Shown: positions 3,113 through 45,314 of the stretch, piece after piece
Position numbering within the stretch: the first letter of the stretch is position 1
Layout: each line of letters opens with the position of its first letter
NCBI GenBank assembly: GCA_037445575.1
Contig: JBBIKH010000005.1
Location: 1-54,689, forward strand
Direction of reading: 5' to 3'
Source of the DNA: a bacterium
Lineage (GTDB): Bacteria > Zhuqueibacterota > Zhuqueibacteria > JANLFK01 > Oleimicrobiaceae
Length of the DNA stretch: 54,689 nucleotides
Translations under genes and position numbers: made by a program
Notes under the pieces: model-generated
What the model was told of the DNA's origin: nothing
Seen by the model: the letters and a program-made list of their open reading frames with translations, nothing else
The model's database searches: none

Positions 3113-3134
3113 GCCGTGGCGTCGTCATGATCAA

Positions 3135-8147: not shown

Positions 8148-8218
8148 GGCCTCCCGGCAAATGTCACCAACTGCCCAGAACGAAAAAGGAGGTGCGGCTT
8201 CCTGCCACATCCTCCTTG

Positions 8219-28726: not shown

Positions 28727-28755
28727 AATATAGGAGAATTCACCCTCTTTTGCAA
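28727..28755 (-). promoter_or_regulatory. sigma70 promoter (TTGCAA-N17-TATATT) for the 28602-to-23426 operon
   Basis: Minus strand reads cggcTTGCAAaagagggtgaattctccTATATTcgccac. Confidence 0.5.
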
Positions 28756-29048
28756 GCCGAAATTGGCGGGAGGCTGGAGAGGTCAGGCAAAACCTTACCA
28801 GTTGTCTCCCCCAATTCCGCCCAGGCGGGATTGCGAGCGTTCGATTCGAGGATTTTTGCCCATGAGGCATCCGGTGGCTGTCCCTCGGGCAAACGTTCGT
28901 TTCGCTTGATCAATTGACCCAGAACTACCTCCTTGAGGCACAAGCCCACGGGGCAGCCAACGACCGACCAGCCCCGGTAGGAGCGCGGCCAACCATTATC
29001 TCAGCCCGGCACGCAACACGGTCCCTTTCTCGCCCAGCCACGACTGCT

Positions 29049-29310
29049 CCATTTCTCTGACAGCCCGATCGCTTCTTTTGCGCTCGGGCCACCGCCAGCT
29101 CGTCGCGCGAACCCTGCGAAGACCGTCCCCTCCAGACACTCCTCGACCGTAAGCGCAAGAACCTCACCCCCTACCAGTTCCAAAGACCGCCATGCCCGAG
29201 GCACCTTGCTCGCTTCTGTTCTCAGCTCCAGTCATCCTCGACCACATTCCCATGAGTCACACTCCTCGAACAAATCGCCGCCGCTCTGCCCGGAAGGGTT
29301 CTGCCCGACC
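29049..29310. repeat. left copy of a diverged ~260-nt direct repeat bracketing the low-GC insert
   Basis: Colinear with 36875-37130 through shared blocks catttctc, ggccaccgccag, agcgcaag, cgccatgccc, cttgctc, tcgaccacattccc, ctcctc and cggaa. Identity is roughly 65-70% by eye, with a few short indels. Confidence 0.6.
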
Positions 29311-29468
29311 AAATCTCTCTTCTGGCACAGGGCGCGGTAGCATTGGCGTCCTTTCCCTGAGCGCCACAATGCGCTGCTCCACTCGCATGGCCACTCCCTG
29401 AAGACCCTCACGCGAGGGAGGGGGATACGATCTTTGTTCCATGTTCCAGGATTCCTTAACAATTTTTC

Positions 29469-29497
29469 TTGACTTTCAGATTCTGCTTTCTTACTTT
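29469..29497 (+). promoter_or_regulatory. candidate promoter of the sensor kinase (TTGACT-N17-TACTTT) exactly at the GC drop
   Basis: ttcTTGACTttcagattctgctttctTACTTTacg. The -10 element is weak. Confidence 0.25.
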
Positions 29498-29646
29498 ACG
29501 GGCAGTTCTAATGAGAGGGAGCTGCCGGACGTAGCCTATCTGTTTGGAAATTGGGATAGCAGGCGCTTGACAGAGGATGCACGTCCTCGATTTGTTGATC
29601 CCTGATGGCGCCGAGCGAATCAAGCATAACAGGAACGGCCGCTACG

Positions 29647-32154
29647 ATGAAAGTGCCGCTAATCGTGGTTTTGATCCTCCTTTTCTTTCCCACCATCCAG
29701 TTCTGTCATGCCGCTGACCCAACTAGGAATTATGAATTCCTTCCCATCTGGCAAAGGTCAGCGTTATCTTTGGTTCCTATGGACGTAAATGCGCAAACGC
29801 CTGGCGAGGAACTCATAGTAGTCTACCCCAATCAGGTAGACGTTTTGACGAGCACTTCACTGACTCACCAAAAAAGCTTCATTGTCCCGGCCGATAAACC
29901 TTATAGCATCACGCCATTACCCGGTGAGTCACCGGATTCACTCCGACTGCTGTTCGGCTATGAAACGCCGACCGCGTCTGTTTTTAACCTATACCTTTAT
30001 GACGGCAGGGACGTTGTGCTCGCCAAAGAGAAGTGTCTCTTTTTCAGCGGACAGGATCGCGATCTAGATGGAAGATTCCATCAAACAATCGTTCCCGTTG
30101 GGCTCATTAATGGTCGAAACAACAAGAGGAATGTGCTGCTACTGGTCGATAGCGGCGGAGATGCGGGGGCTCGCGGCTTGCTTGCTATAGATCCCTCAAC
30201 GGGCAAAGAGGTCTGGCGCTACTTGGCAGGACCCCAGATTCGCCATCAAATGATTGTTGACCTAGAAAATGACGGATTGGAAGAAATTGTGCTTGGCAGC
30301 TATGCGCCCAAGAATGAGCTTAAGCTCAATGGCACCAGTGACGATAGCTGCTATGTTTTTGTGCTTGACAATCTGGGCAATGAACGCTGGCGTAAGACAA
30401 TCGGTCCTTTTTGGACCGGAGCATTTCCCATCGTCGGAGACTTGAATGGCGATGGAAAAAAGGAGTTGGTGGTCCATCGTTTTGGCACCAATCAATACTT
30501 TGCCGATTATGACGAGTTGATCCAATTAGACATTCGCACTGGCGAGCCGATCCATCGTCAAAAACTTGGTAGTCATTTCCTGGCAGCCTCCACTGCTGTG
30601 CTGACGGGAATCTGCCATGATTTTGACCTCGATGGCATTGACGAGTTCGTCATTGGCAGCACGGACGGGTTCGTGAGGATGTATCGAGGGGATTTGTCTG
30701 TGATGTGTTCGTCAGAACCCTATCGCCGACCGATCGCAGTTCATTCCGTGGCAGATATGGATGGGGATGGGCTTCTAGAAGTCATAGCATTGACAGCAGA
30801 CAGAAAGATTGTCTTCTTCAATCACCAACTGAAGCAGTTATTGATTGCACCGTTTCTGACTAATCTAGAGGATTTCTACCTGGTTAAACTTCCTCACAAA
30901 CGGCGGCTGCTGTCTTCAAACGGGCTTGCCGGTACTACGACAGATTATCAACTGTTCGACTTCCACGTCGTTGGTTTAGCTGGTGCAATCAAGAAACGAG
31001 GACAAAATTACTTGGTCATCATCTTGTCCCTTGCTGGCTTGACCGTGGCGTTGGTTGCTTTGCGAAATCATTTGTATGGCAAACGGGCTTGGCAGTTGTT
31101 GTTCCAAATACTTGAGCAAACCCATTCTTTGGATAGAACGCTGATTCTGGATCGCCATCAAAGAATTAGCCATTGGGGTAAGGACTGGGCAAGTCTGCCG
31201 CAAATTCCACCCCATCTGGCAAAAGGCAAGAAACTCCAGCAGGTCTTCGGCAACAGCCATGTTCGTCCTGTTGGCGAAGCACTGGAAAAGATGCTCACTG
31301 AAGAATTAACGAATTATCAGTGTCTCTGCCCAATCGATACCACCAGCCATGTGCCACTCCAATTCAAGGCATTGTACATTTCCTGGATCAAAGCCTGCTG
31401 CGTCATGATTTTCGACCTGCGCGAAGAGGAGCACATCCGTCAGCTCAAACACTGGGCCCAGGTTGCCCAGCGATTGGCGCATGGCATCAAGAATCCGCTG
31501 ACTACCATTAAGCTCAACGCCGAGGAGTTGCTTCACAAAGTCAGAAGCACCGATCAGATTCAGGCACAAGATGTGGAAGAATATGTCACGCCGATTATCA
31601 CCCAGATCGACAAACTGAAAAAAATGAGCGATGGTTTTATGCGGTTTGTCGAGTTCGAGCAGCCGGATTTGAAACCCTGCGACTTGAATCGTGAATGCAG
31701 GGAATTGATCCCTCAATGGCAGCCGGAAAAAAGCGGCAAAATTCAGATTGACTGGGAACTAGAACAAGACCTGCCTCCTGCTATGATCGATCTGCGGCAA
31801 TTTGAATACGCGGTCAAAAATGTTTTCTATAACGCCCTCGAAAGCATCCGTGACGAGGGCAGAATCTTGATCGCAACACGCAGCGTCCAGTTGTTTACAC
31901 AGAATGCCAATGGCGGGGGGATGTCGAGTTTTGTTGAGCTGGAAATTCGGGATACCGGCTGCGGAATTCCGCCAGAATATCTCGATCGGGTTAAGCAGCC
32001 CTATTTTTCGCTCAACAAACCCGAGGGCACCGGACTGGGGCTGAGCATCGTCCAGAAAATTATGGACTCCCACGGCGGACAATTTGATATCCAGAGCGAG
32101 GTGGGCCTGGGCACCTGGGTGATTCTGCGGTTCAAACAGGCGAGTACCAGCTAG
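29647..32154 (+). CDS. sensor histidine kinase with N-terminal periplasmic FG-GAP/VCBS-repeat beta-propeller domain
   Basis: Signal peptide MKVPLIVVLILLFFPTIQFCHA (ATG 29647; an upstream ATG at 29605 is possible). FG-GAP-like repeats DLENDGLEEIVLGS, DLNGDGKKELVV, DFDLDGIDEFVIGS, DMDGDGLLEVIAL. TM segment NYLVIILSLAGLTVALVAL and a PAS-like linker. H-box AHGIKNPLTTI, N-box and G-boxes DTGCGIP / GTGLGLSIV. Confidence 0.85.
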   Translation: MKVPLIVVLILLFFPTIQFCHAADPTRNYEFLPIWQRSALSLVPMDVNAQTPGEELIVVYPNQVDVLTSTSLTHQKSFIVPADKPYSITPLPGESPDSLRLLFGYETPTASVFNLYLYDGRDVVLAKEKCLFFSGQDRDLDGRFHQTIVPVGLINGRNNKRNVLLLVDSGGDAGARGLLAIDPSTGKEVWRYLAGPQIRHQMIVDLENDGLEEIVLGSYAPKNELKLNGTSDDSCYVFVLDNLGNERWRKTIGPFWTGAFPIVGDLNGDGKKELVVHRFGTNQYFADYDELIQLDIRTGEPIHRQKLGSHFLAASTAVLTGICHDFDLDGIDEFVIGSTDGFVRMYRGDLSVMCSSEPYRRPIAVHSVADMDGDGLLEVIALTADRKIVFFNHQLKQLLIAPFLTNLEDFYLVKLPHKRRLLSSNGLAGTTTDYQLFDFHVVGLAGAIKKRGQNYLVIILSLAGLTVALVALRNHLYGKRAWQLLFQILEQTHSLDRTLILDRHQRISHWGKDWASLPQIPPHLAKGKKLQQVFGNSHVRPVGEALEKMLTEELTNYQCLCPIDTTSHVPLQFKALYISWIKACCVMIFDLREEEHIRQLKHWAQVAQRLAHGIKNPLTTIKLNAEELLHKVRSTDQIQAQDVEEYVTPIITQIDKLKKMSDGFMRFVEFEQPDLKPCDLNRECRELIPQWQPEKSGKIQIDWELEQDLPPAMIDLRQFEYAVKNVFYNALESIRDEGRILIATRSVQLFTQNANGGGMSSFVELEIRDTGCGIPPEYLDRVKQPYFSLNKPEGTGLGLSIVQKIMDSHGGQFDIQSEVGLGTWVILRFKQASTS

Positions 32155-32333
32155 CCGCGGAATCTGTGGCACACGGATTGCAAATGCCGTTTTGTCGTGA
32201 TATGAACACGGCAGTTTGTTGTGCTGTTTATTCCACGCCAATGCTCTTGATAGGCGTTTCAACGACCTGGCCGTACCTCGAGACGCATCCAAACATGACT
32301 TACGGTGAATGAGCATAGACACGGGAAAGGCTA

Positions 32334-33695
32334 ATGTGCCCCAAATGTAACATCCTGATCACAGATGATGATGTTACCATCTGTCAAATTCTAAGGCGAA
32401 TCTTGGAAAGCGAAAACTATTAGATCAAAGAAGCTTACTCCGGCAATGAGGCGCTTTCGTTGTTTTCAGAAAATGAGTTCGACCTAGTGCTGCTGGATCT
32501 ACAACTCCCAGACAAAAACGGGATCGATGTTGCCCGGGAGATGATTGCCCAAAACCCGCTTGTCCCGATTGTGCTCATGTCTGCGTATGGAACTATTCCC
32601 AGGGCTGTTGAAGCGACGAGAATGGGCGTATATGATTTTTTGGAGAAGCCGCTGGACCGGGATCGCATTCTGGTCACGGTGCGCAATGCCCTAGTCCATG
32701 GTCAATTGCAACAGGAATTGATCCATTATAGACAGGACTCGTTAGCCCGCTATCAAATGGTCGGGCAATCGCCGGAAATCCAGCGGGTCTTTTCCCTCAT
32801 CGAAAAAATCGCGCCCACCAACTCGCCGGTGCTCATCCTTGGTGAAAACGGCGTCGGCAAGGAATTGGTCGCTCAGGCGATTCACAACCGCAGTCCCAGG
32901 GCGAATAAGCCACTGGTCAGCATCGATTGCGCCGCCATTCCGGATAATCTGCTGGAAAGCGAACTCTTTGGCCACACCAAGGGCGCATTTACCGGCGCAA
33001 GCATAGCAAAAAAGGGCCGCTTCGAGATGGCCGACGGTGGCACCCTGTTTCTCGATGAGGTGGGCGACATGAGTTTGTCAGCCCAGGCAAAGCTCCTGCG
33101 ATTCTTGGAGCGCGGCGAAATCCAGCGGGTCGGTTCATCCCAGGTCACCTCGGTCGATGTGCGGATTATCGCTGCCTCCAATAAGGACTTGAAGCAGATG
33201 GTCGCTGATAAGGCCTTCAGGGAAGACCTTTATTTTCGGTTAGAGATTTTCACCATCACCGTGCCTCCACTGCGGGAACGCCGCTCCGACATCCCGTTGC
33301 TCCTCGATTTCTTCCTTTCCTATTATGCCGAAAAAAATGCCACTGTCAAGCCCATCCTGACGCCGGCCGCCATCAAATATCTTTCGGGACTTGACTGGCC
33401 AGGCAACATCCGCCAGATGCGCAATTTTGTCGAACGTTTAATGATCATGAAACAAGGAGACCTGATCGATCTCAACGAAGTCGTCCCTCTGCTTGAAGCC
33501 AAAGAACCATCATCCCCCATTTCACCCAGCGAATCCAAACCTCTGCAGCAAGCTCGGGAAGATTTCGAGCGCGCGTACATTCTCAAAGTCCTCGAAGAAA
33601 ACGACTGGAAGGTCGCCAAAGCCGCAGAGGTGCTTCACATCGACCGGGCGAATTTGTATCGGAAGTTAAGGGGGTTGGGGATAACTGCGCAGTGA
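32334..33695 (+). pseudogene. sigma54-dependent (NtrC-family) response regulator interrupted by an in-frame TAG at 32421-32423
   Basis: ATG 32334 gives MCPKCNILITDDDVTICQILRRILESENY*IKEAYSGNEALSLFSENEFDLVLLDLQLPD... This is a receiver domain, followed by an AAA+ sigma54-interaction domain (GENGVGKE, GAFTGA, ESELFGH-type motifs) and a C-terminal Fis-type HTH. The ORF-track entry (32460) is the post-stop remainder. Confidence 0.8.
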
Positions 33696-34103
33696 AAATT
33701 CGTCGTATTCCTCTCAAAAGATAGAACCAGAAAGATTTTCATTTGAAAGCGCCGCTAATTGATTTTTTGTGTCAAATTCGCCACAAAAGTTGTGGTAGTT
33801 TTGCAGCAACATAACAAGCTATTTTTTATTAGGAATCATTTTTTATAAAATTGCAGTGTGTCGAATTCAGAATATGCAATGGGATTGCTATTGATACATT
33901 GTTTTTTGTTGCTGATTTAACATTTTATTTTTATGTGTTGATAATAATTTTTTGCAATTATTAAGATATTGGCATAAATATTGAGGGAGAAAAAAACGAG
34001 AAAAGAAAGAAACAATCGATTAAAAAAGATACCCTTTTTAAATTATATTGAGTATAATCGCTTTTGTTTGATTTATTCACTATAAGAATTTTGAAACATG
34101 CGA

Positions 34104-34144
34104 ATTCCATCGATCCGAGCGATGGAATGGGGCAAAATTTTAGC
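34104..34144 (+). promoter_or_regulatory. 9-bp perfect inverted repeat followed by a sigma54-like -24/-12 element (GG-N10-GC)
   Basis: ATTCCATCG-atccgag-CGATGGAAT at 34104-34128, then tgGGGCAaaattttAGCc with GG at 34131-34132 and GC at 34143-34144. The consensus is TGGCAC-N5-TTGC. It lies about 245 nt upstream of the cargo ATG. Confidence 0.3.
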
Positions 34145-34389
34145 CTGTAATGGGTACGTAGATGATCACTCGCTTTTAATAACAATAAATTATCAAAATA
34201 AAAATCAAATGTTAATTATATATTTAAATAATGTAAAGTATTTTCTAGGATAATAATGGATAATTTATTATTACATTTAATTGTATGTATACAGATTATT
34301 GTGATAAAATTCCCAAGAATGCTAATAACATTAAACAGTATTTCAGCTGATAACCAAAATTAAATTATTGTGATGAAGGAGATGAGAAA

Positions 34390-36246
34390 ATGAAAACAAT
34401 TTTTATAATCATGAACGTAATTTGTTTTAGCATTACTTTCGCTAGTAGCTCTTATCATCAATCAAAAAATCAACCTCCTTCAGAAGTAAATAGAATAGAA
34501 ATAGAAAGGTTAAACCCTTTTGAAGGTTATCCTAAAACGGATACTATTTCGGTCAATTCTTTAAGGAAAACATCAGTTACTAACAAATCCGAGGGACAAA
34601 ATAAAAATGGACTAGAAACACAAAAAATATACCATGTTGAAGGTCATGCTGAAATAGATTCTGCAGCGTTCATTTCGTTAAAGAAAACACCAGTTATTGA
34701 TATATCTGAAGGACAAACTAAAGCTAAAGAAGAAACACAAAAAGTATACCATGTTGAAGGTCATGCTGAAATAGATTCTGCAGCGATTAATTCTTTGATG
34801 AAAAAATTAGATATAAACAAAATTGAAGGATATACTGAAGACAAAAAAGAAATGCAAAAGGTATTATATATTGAAGGTCAGTTGGAAGAGGAGGATTCAA
34901 GCAAACAAAAAAAAACAATAGACACAAATATAAAAAATTCAAATTTGAACACTGAAACCTATACGATTTACAGTGCAGGCTGGGATTCGGAGACGGATAT
35001 AGACGGGGATGGCTACACACGATACAGAAAGTTATATTTTGATGTGGACGTAAGCTCGGGGACACACACAGTATATGCCAAGATATATTACAAGCTATAC
35101 ACGTCAAGCAGTTATTCACTTTATCTTACCACCAATGACTTTACCATTACCGAGAATTCTTCCAGTGATGAATATTGGATTGCGGTGGGTGCTCCTAATC
35201 CAGAGCTATCTCATAATATTTATGATTTTGAAATTAGGGTATACAAATCAGGTAGCAGTACTGTACAGGCTACGAGGGGTCCGTCCGAAGATAGTGATTT
35301 GAATGATGAAAATTTTGAGACTACTTCAGAGGATGGCGGGGGTAGTAAAAAGCATAATTGTCTGTACGTTGTTAGCACAGCGGATCAAAATATAATTTCT
35401 ATTTTAAATGAATTGCAATTTCATGTTTCGACTTCTAATTCTATCCCTGCAGATTTAACTTCCTACGATTTGGTGATTTGCAGGGAATACTCAGCCTGTA
35501 CGCCAACCACTGCAACTTATGTTGGCAATTTTGTTAAGAATGGAGGTGGCGCCATTTTGATGCGAGGCACGCCTTCTACATTTGGTGGCGGGGGCTATAG
35601 CTGCAGCAATATTGCTGACTGGTTTGGAACGGGACAATATAGCAATGTGGGGGTGAGTGATGCCAGAGTTGTCATTGATTATCCGCTGGGAACCTCTCTG
35701 GTCAGCAATGATGTGATTGACCACTGCAGCGGATGGGGCGGCGCTGCTGTTAAGAATGTTGCAGCGGATGTAACCGTACTGGCAATGTGGGACTATGGCG
35801 ATGGCAATATCCACAGTTTCATCCGGTCGCATCAGAATGGTCGGGTGGCATTTTGGGCAGGCGATGTTTCTTATAACGAGAAAAACCGGGAACTGTTCAC
35901 AGCTCTATGTCGATGGGTCGCAAATGCAACCACCCTCATCGAGAACCAGAAATTGACCACGCTTCCAGAAGGCTACCACTTGTTTCAAAATTATCCCAAT
36001 CCTTTCAACCCGAACACCACCATCAGCTATGCCCTGCCCCAGCCAGCCCACGTACAAGTAGAGATTTTCGATGTGAACGGACAAGAGGTCAAGCGGCTGG
36101 TGGATCAAGTGTGCAGCGCCGGGGTTCACTCGGTGGTGTGGAATGGAACCGATGAGGCGCAGCGGAAGGTCCCGAGCGGGATTTACATCTGCCGTTTGAG
36201 CGCCGGGGAAGTGGTCTTGCAGCGGAAGTTGATATTGACAAAGTAA
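34390..36246 (+). CDS. secreted repeat protein with T9SS type-A C-terminal sorting domain (unknown function)
   Basis: AAGGAG RBS 8 nt upstream. Signal peptide MKTIFIIMNVICFSITFASS. Three 39-aa tandem repeats, a DIDGDGY-containing beta-rich region and a central alpha/beta-like region. CTD FQNYPNPFNPNTTISYALP...SGIYICRLSAGEVVLQRKLILTK. Confidence 0.8.
   Translation: MKTIFIIMNVICFSITFASSSYHQSKNQPPSEVNRIEIERLNPFEGYPKTDTISVNSLRKTSVTNKSEGQNKNGLETQKIYHVEGHAEIDSAAFISLKKTPVIDISEGQTKAKEETQKVYHVEGHAEIDSAAINSLMKKLDINKIEGYTEDKKEMQKVLYIEGQLEEEDSSKQKKTIDTNIKNSNLNTETYTIYSAGWDSETDIDGDGYTRYRKLYFDVDVSSGTHTVYAKIYYKLYTSSSYSLYLTTNDFTITENSSSDEYWIAVGAPNPELSHNIYDFEIRVYKSGSSTVQATRGPSEDSDLNDENFETTSEDGGGSKKHNCLYVVSTADQNIISILNELQFHVSTSNSIPADLTSYDLVICREYSACTPTTATYVGNFVKNGGGAILMRGTPSTFGGGGYSCSNIADWFGTGQYSNVGVSDARVVIDYPLGTSLVSNDVIDHCSGWGGAAVKNVAADVTVLAMWDYGDGNIHSFIRSHQNGRVAFWAGDVSYNEKNRELFTALCRWVANATTLIENQKLTTLPEGYHLFQNYPNPFNPNTTISYALPQPAHVQVEIFDVNGQEVKRLVDQVCSAGVHSVVWNGTDEAQRKVPSGIYICRLSAGEVVLQRKLILTK
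34558..34908 (+). repeat. 3 x 117-nt in-frame tandem repeat inside the cargo gene
   Basis: Units at 34558-34674, 34675-34791 and 34792-34908. A 39-nt core (taccatgttgaaggtcatgctgaaatagattctgcagcg) is identical at 34630-34668 and 34747-34785. The third unit is diverged. Confidence 0.9.
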
Positions 36247-36258
36247 AGGTACAGTAAA

Positions 36259-36305
36259 ATGATTGACCGCCACCACCCGCATATCGAGTGATGGCGGTCA
36301 ATCAT
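36259..36305. repeat. 14-bp perfect inverted repeat (hairpin) 13 nt after the cargo stop codon; possible bidirectional terminator
   Basis: ATGATTGACCGCCA-(19 nt)-TGGCGGTCAATCAT. There is no T-run on the plus side; TTTAC follows on the minus side. Confidence 0.4.
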
Positions 36306-36874
36306 GCTGTTGAAGCGACCGCAAAATCCAATCTGCTTACAATACCTACTTTCCATACCGCAATCTTCCGTCAAACAGCAAACCAAGCCAATGTTCTGTC
36401 CGTCGGATTCGTTACGGCGACAATGCGGTTTGCTGACACTCGAACATGGCCCAAATAGCTGTTGCCATCCGCCGGGAAGATTTACAAAACAATTATTGAC
36501 CCTGCTTTGACAACGTCGGATCTTGAGCAACCTTGTAAGCCTCAGTCCTTGTGAGGCTCTTAGCCAAAAGAACCACAACGGCAAAAACGGATTGCACGCT
36601 AAAGAACATCTTCGCTTAGCTTCACTCCGCTCGCAAAGACCATTCCCCAAAAGGGGCTGTTAGAGTGGACTGTCAGCTGTAACCCAAAAACCATTATCAC
36701 GTCATTTGGTGGTGGATCGTGGCGAAACATTGCATGGGCTCGCAAAGACATGGCGTTCATTGGCTGGTTATTCAACGGGTCGTGGCAGCGCGGCAAGGGA
36801 TGATGTCGGCCCGACACGGACAACGGTAGGGCCCTGACCAAGCTACGACCCCAGCATGTGCCTGGCATCCCCGT

Positions 36875-37130
36875 CATTTCTCGGGCGTTCCGGCCACCGC
36901 CAGGTGATCGCTCAGGCCCGGCAAAGACCACCCCCAGCCAGGACTCGTCGACTGCCAGCGCAAGGGCATGACTCGCTGCCAGCTCCCCAAGTTCGCCATG
37001 CCCCAGGTCGCTCCCTTGCTCCTGCCTCTACCCCCCGTGATCATCGACCACATTCCCCTGAGCCCACGCCAACTCCTCCAGCAAAACGACACCCCTCACC
37101 GCGGAAAGCTCTTGGCCCGCCACGCCAAGG
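36875..37130. repeat. right copy of the diverged ~260-nt direct repeat bracketing the low-GC insert
   Basis: See 29049-29310. This copy starts about 30 nt beyond the terminator of the TonB-dependent receptor gene. Confidence 0.6.
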
Positions 37131-37161
37131 CGGGGCATGGCCGACAGCCACGCCGAAGACG

Positions 37162-37190
37162 CAAAAGGGCTGACCTGTGGGGGTCAGCCC
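37162..37190 (-). terminator. rho-independent terminator of the 37215-39911 receptor gene
   Basis: Minus strand reads GGGCTGACC-cccaca-GGTCAGCCC-TTTTG, 25 nt after the stop codon. Confidence 0.65.
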
Positions 37191-37214: not shown

Positions 37215-39911
37215 CTACCGGTAGTTGATAATCAAGCCCACATTGAACGTGCGCGGCAGGCCGAAATAGACCTCAGCATCGTCTGCGTCGTGATCTTTGT
37301 CCCAGGCGTTGTAGGAGCTGTTGTCGGTCGCGTCCTGAATGTACTCCTTGTCCAGCACGTTGAATACATGCGCGAACAGCTGCAGTCCCACACCGGCAAA
37401 CCGGAACGGGAGGTCATACGTGACGTGGAGGTCCAGAACGCCGTAGTCGGGTGCGCGCCAGCTCTGCTTCCGGTCATAGGGGTTGGTCCTGCTCAAGGGA
37501 TCCCAGTCGGCGTAGTGGCGCATGTAGTGCCGATACACACCCTGTGCCATCAGCCCGCGCACGGGGAAAAGCGACCCTACCAGAGCAAATTGCGTCTGGG
37601 GAGCGTCACCCACCTTCAGGCCTTTGACGTAAAAGTTATACTGCACATCCTGGGCGCCGCCCGTTGCATAGTCCTTGTAGACTCCGGAGACGTCGTTCAA
37701 ATACTTCCAGTCGCCAACAGAGGCCGAGGCATCGAGACGGAACAAGTTGAGCGGCTGGAAGGAGCTTTCCAGCTCCACGCCTTTATGGCGCAAGTCGATG
37801 CCCTGGATGAAGATGATCCCCTCTGTGCCATCAGGATTGGTGGTCTCTCGCGGCACCGAGCGATCCATCCATGTGGTGTAGTAGACGTTCCCCCTCAGCA
37901 CGAACCTGCCGTCCATCCCGACATAGTTGAGGCCGGCCTCGACCGACGTGAACTTTTCGTTCTTGGGGTCCTTCGCCTTTGTCCCGGTGCGGTCGTTGAT
38001 CACGTTGTCAAAGATTGGCACCTTCTCCACGTATCCGGCATTGGCAAAGGCGTCCAACTGGCGCGTCAACCGATAGCTCGCGCCACCTTTCGCCTGATAA
38101 CCGGAGATCCAGCCGGTGTTCGCCTTGAGTTCTCCTCCAGTAGCGGGGTCCTTGCGGAAGTGGTTGGTGTAGGAGTACTTGATCGTCGAGTAGCCACCCA
38201 TGCCATAGGCGGTCACTGGCCCGCGTGCGTACTCACCTTGCCCGAAGAAGCCCACCCAGTCCACGGTGTTGGTAAAGTCGTAGTCGATCTTGTCGCCGAG
38301 TTTGCGCTGCTTTTCGGCATCCGTCCAAAAGTCAGAGTGGGCAGCGTAGAAGTACTCGCCACCGAGCAGGTCGCGAACCTCGCGGTAGTGCTTGATCTCC
38401 GCTGTGCGCCAGTCAACGCCCGCCGTCAACTTGACCGGTCCGCTGAGCTGGTAGGTGGCCTTGGAGATCGCGCCTATGGTCCACTGGGTGTTCACGCTGT
38501 TGCGCAGGATGCCCTTTGAGCCGGTGGTGCTTGCCTTGTTGTTGGCAATGGTGGCATCCCAGTCAGGGGTGCGGGTCGGCGTGGTATAGTTCCATTTGAT
38601 GGAACCATAGGTGCCGGTCCCTCCCCCTTTGCCACCTGAGTAATACAGCGTGGTCAGCAGCCCAAACTTGTCGGTCAGCTGGGAATACCAGTTCAGGTTA
38701 ACTAGCGGCTTGTGGTAGTAGTTTTCGCGCTCGTTGATAAAGTTCGGGTTGTACCGCTCATGCGTCTTGCCATTCCAGAACTGGAGGCCGGTGTACGTAG
38801 GGCTCACGGGTCCCCACGTCTGGTTGTACTTTCGGCCCTGCTTGGCCTCGAAGTACTTGGTCAATGCCGCCTGGTCGTAGTCGCTCAACTTCTTGCCAAA
38901 GTCGGCACTGTAGACGCCTATGTTCTGCCGGTAGGCGTTTTGGCCATGCTTTTGGGGTGCGCCGAGGGCATACAGCTCGAGTCGATTGTTGGGGTTGATC
39001 TGCCAGCTGGCGCCAAAATAGTAGGCCCACGCATCTGTCCAGGTCTTGTCAACAACCCCGTCGCCCACCTTGCGCACCACGCCCGCGCTGAACGCATACT
39101 TGCCAGCGATGAGGCCGCTATTGGCGATCAGCGTGGACTTTAAGAAGCCGTCATTTCCCACTTCCTGTTTGAACTTTACCCCGAACTCACTGGCGGTGGG
39201 ATCGGTAATGATGTTCATCGTGCCGCCGATGGAGGGCGTAGCTAGGTTGACGGCGCTCAGACCACGCTGCACCTGGATGGAGGAGGTGGCGTCGGCAACC
39301 CCGTCCCAGTTGGACCAATACAGCCATGCGTTCTCCATGTCGTTGACCGGCACACCGTTAATCATGATGGCGACGTTGCGCTGGTTGAAGCCGCGCACGT
39401 TCACCCTGGCGTCACCGGCACCGCCACCCTGCATGGTGGCGTAGACGCTGGGAGTGGTATTGAGCACCAAAGGGATGTCCTGCGACCCCAGACGCGCTTC
39501 CATCTCCTCCTTGCGGACGTCGGTAAATGCCACCGGCGTTTCGCGAATCTTGGCGCGGTCCGCCAGCACCATGATAGTGGCGCCGGAAATCACCTCTGGT
39601 TCCAACCCAATCTCTATGCGCGAAGTCTGGTTGAGCTGAACTGTCACCGGGACAACCGTTGGGCGATAGCCGATGTAGCTGACCTTAAGCTGATGCGTGC
39701 CCACAGGTGCTTTCGGAACCACAAACTCGCCGGCTAAATTGGTCGCCGCCCCGATGGTGGTCCCCAGCACCACCACATTGGCCGCCGGTAGTGGCGCGCC
39801 AGTGTGGGCGTCTGTCACTTTGCCTGTCACCCTGCCGCTCTGCGCCCATGCCAGGATTGGCATGAAGGCAACCACAAACAGAGCGACACATGCAACCACG
39901 CGTCTGCTCAT
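37215..39911 (-). CDS. TonB-dependent receptor with N-terminal carboxypeptidase-regulatory-like domain
   Basis: Signal peptide MSRRVVACVALFVVAFMPILAWAQ (ATG 39911, GGAGGGAG RBS). GRVTGKVTDAHTGAPLPAANVVV CarboxypepD_reg-like domain, plug domain (VNVRGFNQRNVAIMINGVPVND) and a long beta-barrel. Confidence 0.9.
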   Translation of the reverse strand: MSRRVVACVALFVVAFMPILAWAQSGRVTGKVTDAHTGAPLPAANVVVLGTTIGAATNLAGEFVVPKAPVGTHQLKVSYIGYRPTVVPVTVQLNQTSRIEIGLEPEVISGATIMVLADRAKIRETPVAFTDVRKEEMEARLGSQDIPLVLNTTPSVYATMQGGGAGDARVNVRGFNQRNVAIMINGVPVNDMENAWLYWSNWDGVADATSSIQVQRGLSAVNLATPSIGGTMNIITDPTASEFGVKFKQEVGNDGFLKSTLIANSGLIAGKYAFSAGVVRKVGDGVVDKTWTDAWAYYFGASWQINPNNRLELYALGAPQKHGQNAYRQNIGVYSADFGKKLSDYDQAALTKYFEAKQGRKYNQTWGPVSPTYTGLQFWNGKTHERYNPNFINERENYYHKPLVNLNWYSQLTDKFGLLTTLYYSGGKGGGTGTYGSIKWNYTTPTRTPDWDATIANNKASTTGSKGILRNSVNTQWTIGAISKATYQLSGPVKLTAGVDWRTAEIKHYREVRDLLGGEYFYAAHSDFWTDAEKQRKLGDKIDYDFTNTVDWVGFFGQGEYARGPVTAYGMGGYSTIKYSYTNHFRKDPATGGELKANTGWISGYQAKGGASYRLTRQLDAFANAGYVEKVPIFDNVINDRTGTKAKDPKNEKFTSVEAGLNYVGMDGRFVLRGNVYYTTWMDRSVPRETTNPDGTEGIIFIQGIDLRHKGVELESSFQPLNLFRLDASASVGDWKYLNDVSGVYKDYATGGAQDVQYNFYVKGLKVGDAPQTQFALVGSLFPVRGLMAQGVYRHYMRHYADWDPLSRTNPYDRKQSWRAPDYGVLDLHVTYDLPFRFAGVGLQLFAHVFNVLDKEYIQDATDNSSYNAWDKDHDADDAEVYFGLPRTFNVGLIINYR

Positions 39912-40239
39912 ACGCTCCCTCCAAAGTTGGTTCATCCGCGCCAGCTGCCTCCTGATCCACCCCGGCCCAATTGTATCACTTCCCCGCTCAGAGGCTCGTA
40001 CATGCTGGACCGGCGCCCGTTGCGTCGGCCCCGCGCCTCTGCTTGGGTCAGGCGAAGCCCGCCTCCTCATGCGGTTGCGCGCTGCAGCCTGCGCTCCTCT
40101 TGCGCTCCGTCCCGACCCCCGCTGTTGTCAAAGAACAGAGCCGCGGTGGCACCATACCCTCGGCGCCGGCGCATTTCCCAGTCCACAAGGGGGACCATCG
40201 CCCCCTCGCTCACGACAAGGCCCTTCCAGAACCGCTGCA

Positions 40240-41529: not shown

Positions 41530-42531
41530 TCAGAACGCGAAACTGAAGGTGAATTGATGGGTTGCGCCAAGATGGGCAAAATCCTTGAATGCATAGTCCA
41601 GCACCACGCGCGCGCCGGCCACGGGTAACAGGAGCCCCCCGCCTACGGTCAAACGCTCCTCGTCAAAATTGATCCGGTAGCCTCCGCGCAGACGGAGCCG
41701 CTGCAAGACCTCAAGCTCGAGACCGAGCACTGCGTTTTCCACGTTGTCCATCGGGTGGTTGATCTGCATGGCCGCCACGAGGTTGTAGTGCTCGGAGCTG
41801 TAAAGGTCACCAGCCACCCCTACGCGGAAGGTGGTCGGGGGCGCGAACGCTTCGTAGGCTTGTTCCTCCCACTCGCCCTGGACGTTTCTCTTCAAGTAGG
41901 AGCCCCGCGCCTCCAAGTCGGGGCCAAAGTTGACCAAGCTCACCGCGAAGCGCACTTTTCGGTACCCAGTCCAGTAGAAGGTGCCCAGGTCGATCATCCA
42001 TCCACCCATGCGCACGTCGGCCAGCACCTCGTCCACGTACTTTATGGACAGGCCGAAGGAGAAGCGGTTGGTCATCTTGCGCGCGTAGGTGAGGGCAGCA
42101 AAGGTGTCCTGAAAGCGGAAGTACTCGCCGGTGCCCGTGGGGTAGTATTCGTTGGTCACCTCCATGTCTGCCATGTGCAGCATGCCGAGGCTCAGGCCCA
42201 AGGTGCCGAAGCGCGGCAGATGGTGAACATAGCCCAGGAACTCGTATTGGATGTCAGCGGGCCAGGCGATATGGCTAAGGGCAAGATTGTTGTTGGCCAC
42301 CTGCGCCGCCCCGGCCGGATTCCAGTAGAGGACAGTGGCATCTCCTGCCAGGGCAGCGCCCGCGCCGCTCATGGCCACTGCCTGCGCGCCGACTTCAATT
42401 TTCAGGAACGTAGCAGAGGCGGTCCCAATGCGCTGGCCGCCCAGGAGCTGGAACGCTGCTTGCGCCCGCAGCTGTCCACCCGAGCAGAGCAGCAGGGCAA
42501 CGGCCGCAATCCACAATCGCCTCTGTTTCAT
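41530..42531 (-). CDS. PorV-like (PorV/PorQ family) outer-membrane beta-barrel protein
   Basis: Signal peptide MKQRRLWIAAVALLLCSGGQLRAQA. SATFLKIEVGAQAVAMSGAGAALAGDATVLYWNPAGAA matches the PorV N-terminal signature. C-terminal ...HQFTFSFAF. Confidence 0.7.
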   Translation of the reverse strand: MKQRRLWIAAVALLLCSGGQLRAQAAFQLLGGQRIGTASATFLKIEVGAQAVAMSGAGAALAGDATVLYWNPAGAAQVANNNLALSHIAWPADIQYEFLGYVHHLPRFGTLGLSLGMLHMADMEVTNEYYPTGTGEYFRFQDTFAALTYARKMTNRFSFGLSIKYVDEVLADVRMGGWMIDLGTFYWTGYRKVRFAVSLVNFGPDLEARGSYLKRNVQGEWEEQAYEAFAPPTTFRVGVAGDLYSSEHYNLVAAMQINHPMDNVENAVLGLELEVLQRLRLRGGYRINFDEERLTVGGGLLLPVAGARVVLDYAFKDFAHLGATHQFTFSFAF

Positions 42532-42566
42532 CTTCTTGCTACACATGCACAGTTCCAGCGCAGCGG

Positions 42567-45314
42567 TCAGAACCTGATCCCGACCCCCCATCGCACCGTC
42601 CGCGGCCAGCGGTACTTGGACGGATCGTAGATGGGATTGGGGCTTGGATTGATGTCGCGCGTGTAGCTCTTGGTCAAGATATCGCCGGGCCGGTACTCTC
42701 GCCCGGTGTACGGATTGATGATACGCGGAATCAACGCATTCAGGGCGTTCTCGATCTCAACCTGAAGATTCACCTCCAGGCCCTTGAGGCGGAAGTACTT
42801 GTAGCCACGCAGATCAAGCTGGTGCCAGGTGGGAGCAAGATTCGCGTAAGGGTGAGCTGTATCATAGATCTCACGCTCAAGATCAATGAGCCGAGTGTAG
42901 CGCTTGCCCGATTCCAATTCCCAGTGGGCGTTGATCCCCCATTTTTCCGGCAGACGCCAGCCGAATACTCTGAACCCCTGCTTCTCGCCCACGTGCAGAT
43001 TCAAGTCAAGCGTCAGGCGGATTGGCCTGTCCCACTCCAAAAAGTTCTCACGCAGCGGCTTCTCCGCCAACCTGCCCGCCTCCACCAGCAAATTGTCACT
43101 CGGCTTTGAGCTCTTCCCTTTACTCACCGCGTAGGTGAAGTTCAGGGTCCCAGTCAGGTAGCGAGCGTACCGTTGCCGCAGCCACAACTCGACCCCTTTC
43201 GAGCGGGCATAGTCCATGTTGAAGTACATCAGGTAACTGATGTTTCCCAGCCGCGGATTCTCCATCTGTACGCGCTCGGCCGTGGGATAGTCAAACATGT
43301 CCTTGTAGTAGGCCTTAAACTCCGCCACCAGGTTCTCGGTGAACTTGTGTTTGATTCCCAGCTCGTATGCCACCGTAGTCGTCGGGTTCAGGTTGGGGTT
43401 TCCGAACAACTGGTACGTAGCAGGCGAGGTTGACTTGAGCTTGGCGTACACGTACTGCCCTTGCGGGCGCTGCGAAAAGTGCCCGTAGTGAAAGTAGAGC
43501 ACATCGCGATCGGTCACCGGGTGGGAGATCCCCACGCGCGGGCTCAGATGCCCTTTGCCGCGCATGCCCAAGAAGGCAAAGGTGTCCTCATAAAATTTTT
43601 TCCGCGCCGCGCTCGAAATAATCACCGTCTCCGGGTCGTCGATCGCGTCTTGGACAAACTTGCCGGGGAACCAATAGTCGTACCGCAGCCCGACGTTGAC
43701 AATCATCCCTTCATAGGTGATGCGGTCCTGAAGATAAAAAGCACCAGCAGTGGAGTAGACGCGGTAAATGTCGTAGCTGCGGCCGTAACCGCTCTCGCTG
43801 ATCACCCAAGGATCAACGATGTCCACCACCTGCATGGTGGTATATTCGACTTCGAAACCGCCCTTCACCTGATGCTTGGGGTCAATCTGGCTGGTGAGAT
43901 GGCCCTTCAAGGTCCACGTGTCACTGAAGTAGTCGAACCACTGGCCATAGTCGCCATGGTCATAGAAACCATCACCGCGACGGATAACAATATCCCCGCT
44001 TGAGCCTGGCACATAGCGGACTGGCTCCAAGTCCAACTGCTCCACGTACTGGGACCAATGCTTGTTCTGCACCGCACTGTGCGTGGAGGTGAAAAAGTTC
44101 CCCGCCGTCAGCTCGTAGAAGGTCCGAGCTGATAACGTGTGCATCCACGTGGCGTTGGCCAGGATGCTCTCCGAAGTGAATGTGGGGTAATGATCAAGGT
44201 GCTTGCTGAACTCGTACGGGAAGTAGCGCCGGGAAATCACATAACGCCGGAAAAAGCCCTGGTTGATGCTCAGGGAGCGGTCATACGACAAGGAGAACTT
44301 TTGGTTGGGATTGACCTTCCAGGAGAGCTTGGCCAGCACGTGCCAATCGTTTTCCTCTCGCGGCGCAAACGGCTCCAGTCCGGTGCGACTCGGATACAGT
44401 CGTGACGCCTTCGGCAGGTAGGTATCAGAGATGTTCCCGTAGCCGGACAAAAAGAGGCTCACTGTTCCTGGGAAGCGCAACCCTATGGCCGGGAGGAGGT
44501 GTCTGGTGAGCAACTCCGGTCCGCCAAGATTGAACTCCACCACCTGCGTATTGTAACTCCGGAAGAGCCCAAAATTGGGTCGATCGGTCTTGACGGCAAG
44601 ACCGCCGCTGTAGGAGTCGCCACCCTCTTTGGTCACCACATCGATCACCCCCGACATGGCCTGGCCGTACTCGGCGTTAAAGCCACCGGTGATGACTTTC
44701 AGCTCCTTGATGGCATCGGCATTGACATACAAGGTGTTCCCATACCCGGAGAGGGGGTCTTTGATGGAGATGCCGTCGACGATGTACAGGCTCTCATCGG
44801 CGCGGCCACCCCGAATGTGGATCTCGTTGTCGGCCTTTACCACGCCCGCTTGCTGGGTGACAATGTCCTGCACGTTCTCCACGATGCGCTGGCGTATGTC
44901 CTCGGAACTAAAATGCACTTCTGATGCCGTCAGGTCCACCTGCAGCAAGGGCCGCTCCCCGACCACGACAATCTCCTGGCCGAACGCCAAAACTGACTGT
45001 TCCAGCTCAAAGTCGAGCACGACCTGTTGGCCAGGGGCCACCTTGACGCCGGTGCGCAGCTGGATCTTGTAGCCGATCATTGACGCCTGAATGTCGTATT
45101 GGCCAGGGCTGACCCGCTCGATAAGGTAGCGACCCTTTTCATCGGTGGCCGCACCCATGTAGGTCCCCTTCACCACCACATTCACCCCTGGCAGCGGGGC
45201 GCGCGTCTCCTTATCCACGACGGTGCCGACAATACTGCCCTTGCTGCGCTGCTGGGCAGCCAGCGCTGGGCAGCACAGGAGCAACACCGCCACTATGAAG
45301 CCCTTAGTCTTCAT
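42567..45314 (-). CDS. TonB-dependent receptor with carboxypeptidase-regulatory-like N-terminal domain
   Basis: GSIVGTVVDKETRAPLPGVNVVVKGT..., plug domain (IHIRGGRADESLYIVDGISIKDP), barrel ending in ...WGVGIRF. The ATG overlaps the upstream stop (ATGA). Confidence 0.9.
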   Translation of the reverse strand: MKTKGFIVAVLLLCCPALAAQQRSKGSIVGTVVDKETRAPLPGVNVVVKGTYMGAATDEKGRYLIERVSPGQYDIQASMIGYKIQLRTGVKVAPGQQVVLDFELEQSVLAFGQEIVVVGERPLLQVDLTASEVHFSSEDIRQRIVENVQDIVTQQAGVVKADNEIHIRGGRADESLYIVDGISIKDPLSGYGNTLYVNADAIKELKVITGGFNAEYGQAMSGVIDVVTKEGGDSYSGGLAVKTDRPNFGLFRSYNTQVVEFNLGGPELLTRHLLPAIGLRFPGTVSLFLSGYGNISDTYLPKASRLYPSRTGLEPFAPREENDWHVLAKLSWKVNPNQKFSLSYDRSLSINQGFFRRYVISRRYFPYEFSKHLDHYPTFTSESILANATWMHTLSARTFYELTAGNFFTSTHSAVQNKHWSQYVEQLDLEPVRYVPGSSGDIVIRRGDGFYDHGDYGQWFDYFSDTWTLKGHLTSQIDPKHQVKGGFEVEYTTMQVVDIVDPWVISESGYGRSYDIYRVYSTAGAFYLQDRITYEGMIVNVGLRYDYWFPGKFVQDAIDDPETVIISSAARKKFYEDTFAFLGMRGKGHLSPRVGISHPVTDRDVLYFHYGHFSQRPQGQYVYAKLKSTSPATYQLFGNPNLNPTTTVAYELGIKHKFTENLVAEFKAYYKDMFDYPTAERVQMENPRLGNISYLMYFNMDYARSKGVELWLRQRYARYLTGTLNFTYAVSKGKSSKPSDNLLVEAGRLAEKPLRENFLEWDRPIRLTLDLNLHVGEKQGFRVFGWRLPEKWGINAHWELESGKRYTRLIDLEREIYDTAHPYANLAPTWHQLDLRGYKYFRLKGLEVNLQVEIENALNALIPRIINPYTGREYRPGDILTKSYTRDINPSPNPIYDPSKYRWPRTVRWGVGIRF

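Follow-up and report, generated by a model that had tools for sequence, protein, structure and literature searches.

A foreign kinase, regulator and T9SS cargo block with diverged direct repeats in a GC-rich Zhuqueibacterota genome, probably an old islet gained by gene transfer

A block carrying a sensor histidine kinase, an NtrC-type response regulator and a secreted protein lies in the 54,689-nt stretch of contig JBBIKH010000005.1 analysed here (the window), which belongs to a GC-rich, uncultured member of Candidatus Zhuqueibacterota (KSB1) with an Oleimicrobiaceae MAG as its closest named relative. The block is probably an old, mosaic, horizontally acquired islet that was inserted by illegitimate joining, with a pair of direct repeats that lay within the inserted DNA and drifted neutrally (Table 1).

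Table 1. Features of the inserted block and its junctions, in window coordinates
Feature	Position	Strand	Size	Description
Sigma-70-type promoter	28727..28755	-		TTGCAA-N17-TATATT, from promoter scan; starts 12 nt from left junction
Left junction	28764..28767			last host bases TGGC; L081 homology ends at 28767
Whole inserted block	28768..37137		8,370 bp	absent at relatives' empty sites (blastn vs L081-L083, L088, L089)
Segment a	28768..28976		209 nt	60% GC; no match among sequences fetched
R-left	28977..29311	+	335 nt	62% GC; GC skew -0.34
Segment c	29312..29604		293 nt	GC-rich, passing into AT-rich promoter-like stretch 5' of kinase
Sensor histidine kinase	29647..32154	+	835 aa	N-terminal FG-GAP repeats, HisKA, HATPase_c (Pfam)
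Sigma-54 promoter	32167..32182	+		predicted; perfect consensus TGGCACacggaTTGCA; upstream of regulator gene
NtrC-type sigma-54-dependent response regulator	32334..33695	+		REC, AAA+ sigma-54 interaction domain, HTH_8
AT-rich spacer	33696..34389			27% GC; first ~300 nt homologous to donor spacer downstream of regulator
Conserved element	33767..33807	+		two TGTGTCA-like half sites; just past regulator stop codon
Secreted mosaic protein (third gene)	34390..36246	+	618 aa	39-aa tandem repeats, choice-of-anchor H domain, T9SS type A C-terminal sorting domain
Hairpin	36259..36305	+ (assigned)	21-nt arms	right after third gene's stop codon
Segment d	36306..36781		476 nt	~49% GC; no match among sequences fetched
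R-right	36782..37122	+	341 nt	66% GC; GC skew -0.24
Right junction	37138..37141			first host bases TGGC
Terminator hairpin	37167..37190	-		of TonB-dependent receptor gene (37215-40070, minus); kept in relatives

The first-pass annotation had proposed a compositionally foreign insert from G+C counts on 60-nt lines. These counts were confirmed to the base (39/60 for 28981-29040, 11/60 for 33901-33960), lines in the kinase gene run from 23 to 37 with a median of 29, and both third-position GC and tetranucleotide usage agree with them. Region by region, the flanks stand at about 0.60-0.64 GC; the value is 0.46-0.57 at 29.4-33.6 kb, falls to 0.25-0.36 at 33.6-35.2 kb, returns to about 0.50 as far as 36.6 kb and reaches 0.66 at 36.8-37.2 kb. 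GC3 averages 0.761 +/- 0.035 in 25 host genes and is 0.56 in the kinase, 0.63 in the regulator and 0.40 in the third gene, and the tetranucleotide profile, which otherwise correlates with that of the host at 0.8-0.94, reaches only -0.46 to 0.40 in the 2-kb windows with start points from 29001 to 35001. In addition, the three enclosed genes stand on the plus strand, as first described, among large ORFs at 8.8-28.7 kb and 37.2-54.7 kb that are all on the minus strand.

The insertion site is defined by relatives that lack the block. In three of them (L081-L083, comprising one NCBI MAG and two Logan assemblies, with flanks 88% and 84% identical at the nucleotide level), the terminator is followed by about 38 nt and then the promoter -35 box, with neither repeat copy present, and two JGI sequences (L088/L089) also carry an empty site. 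In all of these, homology to the window ends at 37140/37153 and picks up again at 28767/28765, with 4-18 nt between. The insert had been described as ~7.4 kb bracketed by the repeats, but these empty sites give the longer block of Table 1, in which both copies lie inside, 209 nt and 17 nt from the ends. Because the copies and both offset sequences belong to the inserted DNA, the evidence does not establish the repeats as duplicates of a host target. The expectation that removal of the insert together with one copy leaves an ordinary spacer likewise fails, since the ordinary spacer in the three relatives is the repeat-free gap of ~38 nt, and the single-copy empty site sought among relatives did not appear, the empty sites found holding no copy. 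The promoter beside the left junction drives a lipoprotein / deacetylase / pdxJ operon and its sequence is kept in L081, L085, L086 and L088; insertion into this terminator-promoter gap disrupts nothing. The same gap is rearranged in two further lineages, with other cargo, free of flanking repeats, in L086 and a rearrangement in L085, and both hold unrelated, long, GC-rich non-coding fillers (1.2 kb in L085; ~0.74 kb and ~0.8 kb in L086). The tetranucleotide TGGC is common to both junctions, for which a blunt join would give at least four ambiguous bases with P ~0.014 by our own calculation. A 4-nt sequence at both junctions is also the expected look of a 4-bp target-site duplication.

The closest kinase homologs, 69-80% identical in amino acids, are found in contigs of 43-46% GC from low-GC Zhuqueibacterota, and every donor contig that extends upstream has the order (recA-recX-alaS-)pcrB-cpsB-kinase-regulator. 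The constant upstream neighbour cpsB is missing from the block, and segment c does not significantly resemble the cpsB of the donors. Nucleotide homology to the donor contigs covers 29605-33867 only, and the spacer and the C-terminal half of the third gene match a 35% GC MAG (GCA_020722095.1, L113) at 69-84%. By sequence similarity, the donor of the core is placed among low-GC (35-46% GC) Zhuqueibacterota, which together with the empty sites in L081-L083 and L088/L089 upholds the foreign origin of the segment; no intermediate genome for the mosaic was found. On the window branch, the kinase gene has accumulated 131 AT>GC against 50 GC>AT substitutions, compared with 24 against 23 on the closest donor branch, and its GC exceeds that of every donor copy by 4-6 points, a pattern of amelioration. 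The old event that the first-pass annotation listed among its options is supported by this amelioration and by the repeat divergence, as the Jukes-Cantor distance between R-left and R-right (0.39) amounts to ~80% of dS to L081, the nearest insert-free relative (0.44-0.56). The kinase (omega 0.15-0.21, with donor-donor pairs alike) and the regulator (omega 0.06-0.10) are under purifying selection. An assembly chimera, in which the low-GC core of another organism in the sample was spliced into the contig, would account for the sharp GC shift, and donor-like genes of the same phylum could share one metagenome. However, such an artefact is very unlikely because host synteny picks up exactly on both sides and because the 2.6:1 GC-ward bias and raised GC of the kinase are specific to this copy; moreover, two false joins would be needed at sequences with only 4 nt in common, the block ends are GC-rich, and the donors' cpsB is absent.

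The direct repeats, first estimated at ~260 nt, are real and colinear and share the four blocks named at the time, but are ~335 nt long, with no similarity beyond that length. Their best alignment has 232/333 identical positions (69.7%) with several 1-5-nt indels (E 5e-23), blastn pairs 28982-29295 with 36787-37106 at 68% identity (E 4.6e-23), and the local alignment score is 107 compared with a mean of 11.9 and a maximum of 18 for shuffles. The window holds these two copies only, and no further copy was detected in ~95 kb from close relatives, in loci of more distant origin (~1.2 Mb) or among 241 million metagenome records scanned by pattern, which lends no support to the suggested dispersed intergenic repeat. 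Identity is even along the whole length, with no conserved core; protein-level conservation is found in no frame (z below 2), mismatches have no codon-position bias, six-frame searches gave no Pfam match and Rfam none, folding z-scores on both strands (-0.6 to +0.5) give no RNA-structure signal, and covariation between the copies does not exceed the level of any two aligned sequences. The one minus-strand frame of R-right searched against 1.84 billion representative proteins has no homolog; its single match is a repetitive junk protein. With no other copy in the sequences searched and no coding, RNA or family signal, the repeats look like a decayed segmental duplication, that is, decaying functionless DNA. 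Nevertheless, the 3' half of R-right (36936-37122) has a period-3 GC power of 9.9 (95% shuffle limit 3.0), frames +2 and -1 of R-right score weakly positive for host codon usage, and a stop codon occupies the same minus-frame position in both copies (TAG vs TGA). The period-3 signal and the shared stop suggest that the repeat ancestor, or part of it, may have been a small orphan coding region. Repeats that are still functional and selected, for example as a small orphan gene, an sRNA, or an insulator or regulatory sequence on either side of the module, would fit these signals and the strong GC skew common to both copies. However, this is improbable in view of the several frame-shifting indels between the copies, their uniform identity and the lack of protein, structural or family signal.

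Consistent with the first-pass annotation, domain, tRNA and six-frame scans found no mobility functions: integrase and transposase domains are absent from the insert, from the 19 window ORFs scanned and from the six-frame translation of the end segments, the sole tRNA of the window (tRNA-Val, 8218-8292) is not near the insertion site, and neither att-like perfect repeats nor a tRNA target was found for the block. Like the products of Campbell-type integration and integrase-less cis-mobilisable remnants, the block has repeats bracketing cargo and no integrase inside; it differs in that the empty site lacks the repeat, so that the key prediction of simple Campbell-type recombination, raised earlier, fails in L081-L083 and L088/L089. 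Moreover, its repeats are not at the junctions, no tRNA/tmRNA target is present, and the 335-nt, ~70% identical copies contrast with the short, perfect att cores of such remnants. Composite transposons and cointegrates (IS26-type, Tn3-derived miniature elements) share the two direct copies flanking cargo and a short duplication flanking the whole, whereas the repeats here have no inverted-repeat ends, are offset from the junctions, come with no transposase and occur at a single locus within the sequences searched. A non-autonomous unit moved in trans, either repeat-bounded and composite- or cointegrate-like or hairpin-ended and IS200/IS605-like with insertion 3' of TGGC, could draw on the direct repeats close to both ends, on the TGGC that stands before the left end and closes the right one, on a perfect GC hairpin of 6 bp that lies 3-22 nt from the latter (host DNA has 1.3 such hairpins per kb) and on the different cargo in the gap of L086. 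It is nonetheless a far-fetched account, as the offset sequences are not repeated, the repeats lack terminal inverted repeats, the window has no transposase, no second copy of the repeat or of the whole unit occurs in the sequences searched, the L086 cargo has no flanking repeats, the left-end hairpin requires a G-T pair and sits 45 nt from the end, and the 30% divergence between copies shows that there has been no recent activity.

The block most resembles islets without mobility genes in its foreign composition, precise empty site, harmless intergenic gap, lack of a recombinase and GC-rich 4-nt junction microhomology, and differs in being a mosaic with GC-rich ends. Natural transformation of Acinetobacter baylyi, through double illegitimate recombination and homology-facilitated illegitimate recombination, reportedly provides an experimental precedent for such islets. 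Integration of the block would most likely have been illegitimate and guided by the TGGC microhomology, rather than site-specific or homologous. Illegitimate and microhomology mechanisms do not by themselves yield the ~335-nt direct repeat pair; the repeats probably represent GC-rich non-coding DNA duplicated as the mosaic was built up, either in some intermediate genome of high GC or at the present site, with the copies later diverging by neutral drift and having no present function. The GC content of the repeats (62-66%) is host-like, not donor-like, and a resident spacer that became duplicated on entry of the core fits it at least as well. An alternative scenario, possible but rather doubtful, is that a resident GC-rich filler of ~565 nt (segment a, one repeat copy R and end segment b) already occupied the gap and that the low-GC core entered it while duplicating the 335-nt R, through a single-crossover (Campbell-type) circle with an R copy or through offset sister-strand breaks joined around captured DNA. 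The host-like GC of R, a and b (0.60-0.77, versus 0.27-0.52 in the core) and the comparable fillers in L085 and L086 are consistent with this order of events, and the R-R distance roughly equals the post-transfer third-position change of the kinase, as expected if duplication and core arrival were one event. However, a one-copy site occurs in no relative, L081-L083 and L088/L089 lack a, R and b, two successive insertions into the ~38-nt gap would have to fall within the initial ~20% of the branch that starts at the L081 split, and it is hard to see where a circle with host R and foreign genes would have come from. The 35% GC MAG offers a partial parallel: its multi-kb block carries a related regulon (a regulator 3' remnant and spacer), no mobility genes and diverged bracketing repeats (296 nt, 81% identical), but those are T9SS sorting-domain coding sequence, modules common to paralogous cargo genes and hence an obvious recombination substrate, whereas the repeats in the window match nothing.

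The genes of the block resemble NtrC/AtoC/ZraR-type systems in their HisKA/HATPase kinase and REC-AAA+-HTH_8 regulator, in the perfect -24/-12 promoter before the regulator gene and in a conserved candidate upstream activator site; they differ in the FG-GAP beta-propeller-like domain of the kinase (the presumed sensor), in a presumed T9SS cargo target and in the premature TAG of the regulator gene, a single in-frame codon at 32421-32423 that is recent. No equivalog model matched the block proteins at cutoff. The element at 33767-33807 is kept in L090, L091, L093 and L113 and is a candidate activator binding site, and the AT-rich spacer carries a -24/-12-like TGGCATaaataTTGA at 33970-33984. Judged by its domains, the third gene is a type IX secretion (T9SS) cargo gene, with a putative signal peptide recognised by eye in the translation. 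The hairpin that follows it is likely its terminator, the plus strand being inferred, as the scan placed the T-run, and hence the call, on the minus strand.

Collectively, the core (29605 to ~36300) derives from the low-GC part of this phylum, and the block is an ordinary old gene-transfer scar rather than a novel type of mobile element. The FG-GAP sensor kinase would phosphorylate the NtrC-type activator, and the activator, acting with sigma-54, probably directs transcription from its own promoter and from the downstream AT-rich promoter of the T9SS cargo gene.

The small lipoprotein-like protein encoded to the left of the insert has just a handful of homologs among 5.8 billion proteins, and the contigs that carry them gave the decisive comparison. 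A scan of genome contigs for the TonB-dependent receptor returned relatives with at most 65% amino acid identity, of no use for an empty-site test, and a search for exact-protein records of two window proteins found none. L081-L083, which comprise an NCBI MAG labelled Candidatus Oleimicrobiaceae, of the phylum Candidatus Zhuqueibacterota, and two independent Logan assemblies, have the lipoprotein gene immediately after the receptor gene. Nucleotide homology between these relatives and the window (88% and 84%) ends at 37140 and restarts at 28767, with 4 nt in between in the relative. Two JGI contigs from a more distant relative (L088 and L089) are likewise empty, with breakpoints at 37153 and 28765. 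These empty sites indicate that the ordinary spacer measures ~38 nt, from the terminator T-tract to the -35 box, and the inserted segment spans 28768-37137 (8,370 bp). The tetranucleotide TGGC is common to both junctions and is present once in the empty site, a pattern in which a 4-nt microhomology join and a target-site duplication look alike; by our calculation, a blunt join would yield at least four ambiguous bases about 1.4% of the time.

Other relatives carry the same gap in rearranged form. In L086 (4963-10000), it holds a different 5-kb cargo, comprising a 375-aa ORF and two metallophosphoesterase genes, with no flanking repeats around it. In L085 (8780-10000), 1.2 kb of unrelated GC-rich filler joins the conserved promoter to a glycoside hydrolase 38 (GH38) gene and a tRNA. 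The terminator-promoter gap is a recurrent breakpoint, disturbed in these two further lineages, and recurrent breakage is expected where insertions hurt nothing.

Genes of the insert and of its immediate flanks, with window coordinates
Feature	Coordinates	Strand	Domains or signals
Histidine kinase	29647-32154	plus	FG-GAP repeats, HisKA, HATPase_c (Pfam)
NtrC-type activator	32334-33695	plus	Receiver domain (REC), sigma-54 interaction AAA+, HTH_8 (Pfam)
Third gene (T9SS cargo)	34390-36246	plus	Hydrophobic signal-peptide-like N-terminus, choice-of-anchor H domain, T9SS type A sorting domain
TonB-dependent receptor gene	37215-40070	minus	Terminator hairpin 37167-37190
Operon of small lipoprotein-like gene, then polysaccharide deacetylase and pdxJ	promoter 28755-28727	minus	TTGCAA-N17-TATATT

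The foreign composition described in the first-pass annotation is borne out by GC profile, GC3 and tetranucleotide correlation, and its GC counts were exact on recount. GC content is ~0.60-0.64 in the flanks, 0.46-0.57 at 29.4-33.6 kb and 0.25-0.36 at 33.6-35.2 kb; it stays near 0.50 as far as 36.6 kb and reaches 0.66 at 36.8-37.2 kb. GC3 is 0.761 +/- 0.035 in host genes (n=25), whereas the three enclosed genes have values of 0.56, 0.63 and 0.40. Tetranucleotide correlation with the host, a calculation that the annotation had proposed, collapses in 2-kb windows starting at 29001-35001. The reported strand switch is equally real: the large neighbours are all minus-strand genes, the three enclosed ones plus-strand.

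The closest homologs of the kinase (69-80% amino acid identity) lie on contigs of 43-46% GC, and two of the donor contigs examined belong to NCBI MAGs that carry the name candidate division KSB1, formerly used for Candidatus Zhuqueibacterota. Every donor contig that reaches upstream shows the context (recA-recX-alaS-)pcrB-cpsB-kinase-regulator. Nucleotide homology to the donor loci is limited to 29605-33867 of the window and begins a few bases past the stop codon of the donors' cpsB. Beyond this, the AT-rich spacer (to ~33996) and the C-terminal half of the third gene share 69-84% nucleotide identity with L113, a MAG of 35% GC (GCA_020722095.1). The third gene has a GC3 of 0.28 in its N-terminal half, which matched nothing among the loci compared, and of 0.53 in its C-terminal half, which is 84% identical at the nucleotide level to the L113 gene. 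This split origin of the spacer and the third gene halves indicates that the core (29605 to ~36300) is itself a mosaic from low-GC relatives. Segment c (29312-29604), just left of the core, was considered as a relic of the 3' end of the donors' cpsB and rejected; a MAFFT alignment looked suggestive, but the Smith-Waterman score equalled the shuffle mean.

Substitutions unique to the window copy of the kinase comprise 131 AT>GC and 50 GC>AT changes, compared with 24 and 23 on the closest donor branch, and this copy lies 4-6 GC points above any donor copy. This GC-ward bias is amelioration in a GC-rich genome. Against the donors, omega is 0.15-0.21 for the kinase and 0.06-0.10 for the regulator, low values indicating that both genes have been kept functional; relaxed selection on the kinase is ruled out, since its omega equals that among the donors. 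An assembly chimera is very unlikely, given that the kinase has ameliorated, synteny resumes exactly to left and right, the block ends are GC-rich and cpsB is missing.

The kinase and regulator form a standard NtrC-type two-component module, here joined by a T9SS cargo gene. All of their listed domains score above the Pfam gathering scores, and the NCBIfam ntrC/AtoC-like models score the regulator under their equivalog cutoffs. The third gene reaches 39.7 bits for the T9SS sorting domain TIGR04183 (cutoff 23) and 43.6 for FlgD_ig, while Pfam Por_Secre_tail (PF18962) gives 26.4, just below its cutoff of 27. Within its AT-rich 5' part (34488-34880), a 117-nt (39-aa) unit is repeated in tandem, in three to 3.4 copies. 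The reading frame of the regulator is broken once, by a TAG at codon 30 (32421-32423), a position occupied by CAG or GAG in the donors; because both regulatory genes have been kept functional, this must be either a sequencing error or a true nonsense codon that is recent or still polymorphic. The kinase and regulator genes are separated by a stretch that holds TGGCACacggaTTGCA (32167-32182), the only perfect sigma-54 promoter consensus (TGGCAC-N5-TTGCA) in the 54.7-kb window; this position suggests that the regulator gene is itself sigma-54-dependent. Directly after the regulator stop codon lies a candidate activator binding site (33767-33807), an element with two TGTGTCA-like half sites that is conserved in all donor loci, namely L090, L091, L093 and L113. 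The third gene is preceded by a TGGCAT-N5-TTGA variant only (33970-33984), which is conserved with L113 and is a candidate -24/-12-like promoter of that gene. On the host side, a minus-strand gene at 46891-49572 encodes a protein with DUF5689 and an FlgD_ig-type C-terminal domain, the last 90 aa of which are 42% identical to the sorting domain of the third gene, and PorV-like genes lie close by at 41530-42591 and 18654-19565. Judging from these predicted products, the recipient appears to possess its own T9SS machinery for exporting the acquired cargo.

The direct repeat reported at ~260 nt is real but somewhat longer, its two copies (R-left and R-right) lying at 28977-29311 and 36782-37122. 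They are identical at 232 of 333 aligned bases (69.7%), with several short indels (blastn E 4.6e-23; local score 107, against a shuffle maximum of 18), and similarity extends on neither side into the adjoining segments a (28768-28976), c and d (36306-36781). Neither the repeat nor the 209-nt segment a occurs in any relative compared (84-88% nucleotide identity at closest), and segment b, the 17 nt at the right end, is unaligned in the relatives; both copies therefore belong to the inserted block. The earlier proposal, in which an ordinary spacer would be left once the insert and one copy are deleted, thus finds no support, as the empty sites of L081-L083 and L088/L089 carry no repeat at all. 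The same comparison speaks against a Campbell-type single crossover at a homologous segment: two copies bracketing the inserted DNA on the same strand and in direct orientation do agree with it, but the one-copy unoccupied site is absent from these relatives (84-88% identity at closest).

The repeat copies have a GC content of 62% and 66% and a strong GC skew (-0.34 and -0.24) that is lacking in neighbouring segments, and their composition resembles the host and not the donors. Descent from a coding sequence is unsupported by most tests. Mismatches show no preference for a codon phase, none of the frames on the two strands beats column-shuffled controls in frame-wise BLOSUM scoring, six-frame Pfam searches of the repeats and end segments returned nothing, and tblastn of all repeat frames found no match in any locus compared. 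An exhaustive HMMER search of the best minus-frame R-right translation against 1.84 billion representative proteins retrieved one repetitive junk protein only. What is left is the period-3 GC signal in the 3' half of R-right (36936-37122), with a power ratio of 9.9 against a 95% shuffle limit of 3.0. This half has weakly host-like codon usage, and a stop codon (TAG and TGA) stands at the same minus-frame position in both copies. An orphan coding region from some GC-rich genome may be the ancestor of the repeat.

A structured RNA was rejected as well, with no Rfam match at E up to 1 and single-sequence folding energies equal to those of shuffles on both strands (z -0.6 to +0.5); RNAalifold on the two sequences was uninformative. 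The mismatches are not adenine-specific, which excludes template and variable repeats like those of a diversity-generating retroelement, and identity is uniform along the length with an unremarkable substitution spectrum. A dispersed intergenic repeat of REP or MITE type, also raised in the first-pass annotation, found no backing, although the organism's own genome could still hold copies: searches with blastn and nhmmer added none to the two known copies, whether in the 54.7-kb window, the close relatives (~95 kb), the donor loci or more distant sequence (~1.2 Mb; 80 TonB-receptor loci). A metagenome pattern scan (241 million records) with the 18 most conserved specified bases gave 16 matches, all by chance; exact-pattern scans of viral and metagenome contigs gave chance matches in unrelated genes only, and a plasmid collection gave no match. 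No function was found for the repeat, and we infer a decayed segmental duplication dating from the assembly of the mosaic. Small GC-rich hairpins with a common CCGCC...GGCGG(G) core are located at 28813-28832, 45 nt from the left end, and at 37116-37134, 3 nt from the right end. Host DNA has 1.3 perfect 6-bp GC hairpins per kb, so these two are probably there by chance, the perfect right-end one being only mildly unusual.

The two copies differ by a Jukes-Cantor distance of 0.39, and synonymous divergence between the window and L081 is 0.44-0.56 over four flanking genes. If the copies started out identical and diverged by neutral drift, these values make the duplication roughly 80% as old as the split from the nearest relative without the insert, similar to the age suggested by the GC-ward third-position changes of the kinase for its residence in a GC-rich genome. 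Of the three origins first suggested, an old event is therefore the best supported.

As reported earlier, the block carries no mobility genes. Pfam detected no integrase, transposase or other mobility domain in the three insert genes, the six-frame translations of the end segments or 16 neighbouring ORFs. No tRNA target lies within 20 kb, the only tRNA being 20 kb off, and the junctions share no short exact att-like direct repeat but TGGC. An integrase-mediated genomic island, ICE or prophage was thus rejected, having neither a tyrosine or serine recombinase nor a tRNA/tmRNA target or att site. A composite transposon or cointegrate was also rejected, with the repeat copies 209 nt and 17 nt away from the junctions at offsets that do not recur; no inverted repeats occur at the ends of the copies or of the block. 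The deviant composition, precise empty site, identifiable donor lineage and amelioration are those of a horizontally acquired islet, and the insert behaves like the small integrase-less islets of many bacteria.

What is observed is an 8.37-kb mosaic in a terminator-promoter gap, with no self-encoded recombinase, a 4-nt shared junction sequence and internal repeats. Integration would have proceeded by illegitimate, microhomology-guided joining, with the repeats duplicated during assembly of the mosaic. The duplication may have taken place in an intermediate, GC-rich genome that later passed on the block as a whole; this requires just one event at the 38-nt gap, and segments c and d belong to neither host nor donors. 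Alternatively, GC-rich filler (segment a, one repeat and segment b) may have accumulated at the gap first, with the repeat duplicated on entry of the low-GC core. This order retains the geometry of the first-pass annotation, moved to a lineage-specific spacer, and is consistent with the host-like composition of the repeats and with the unrelated fillers at the same gap in other lineages. Mobilisation in trans is a minor possibility, as the repeats lie away from the ends, the termini are not inverted and no other copies were found. Its boldest form, in which the repeats bound a non-autonomous mobile cassette of a new type in Zhuqueibacterota, would account for the different cargo in the same gap across lineages, but we regard it as highly improbable; the trans-acting enzyme would have to recognise either ~335-nt terminal direct repeats or subterminal GC hairpins with a TGGC target, and would move whole regulatory modules into terminator-promoter gaps.

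In L113, a 6.2-kb block opens with a remnant of the 3' end of the regulator gene and its downstream spacer. It is flanked by 296-nt direct repeats (3131-3425 and 9652-9947) of 81% identity, which consist of T9SS sorting-domain coding sequence common to paralogous cargo genes. This locus is a parallel, better-explained case of a cassette with diverged direct repeats, and it shows by what route this group can come by such an arrangement with no mobility genes involved.

Collectively, the insert belongs to a known kind, met here in a phylum that has been little studied, and is well resolved save for the origin of its repeats. A complete module of sensor, sigma-54 activator and secreted cargo can be transplanted and kept under selection without a mobility gene; there is no new principle beyond that, and unless more copies surface, the flanking repeats are a historical scar and not a mechanism. 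As a case of genes moving between low-GC and high-GC lineages within an uncultured phylum, it is clean and can be dated: the empty site is precise, the native locus of the genes has been identified, and their amelioration can be measured.
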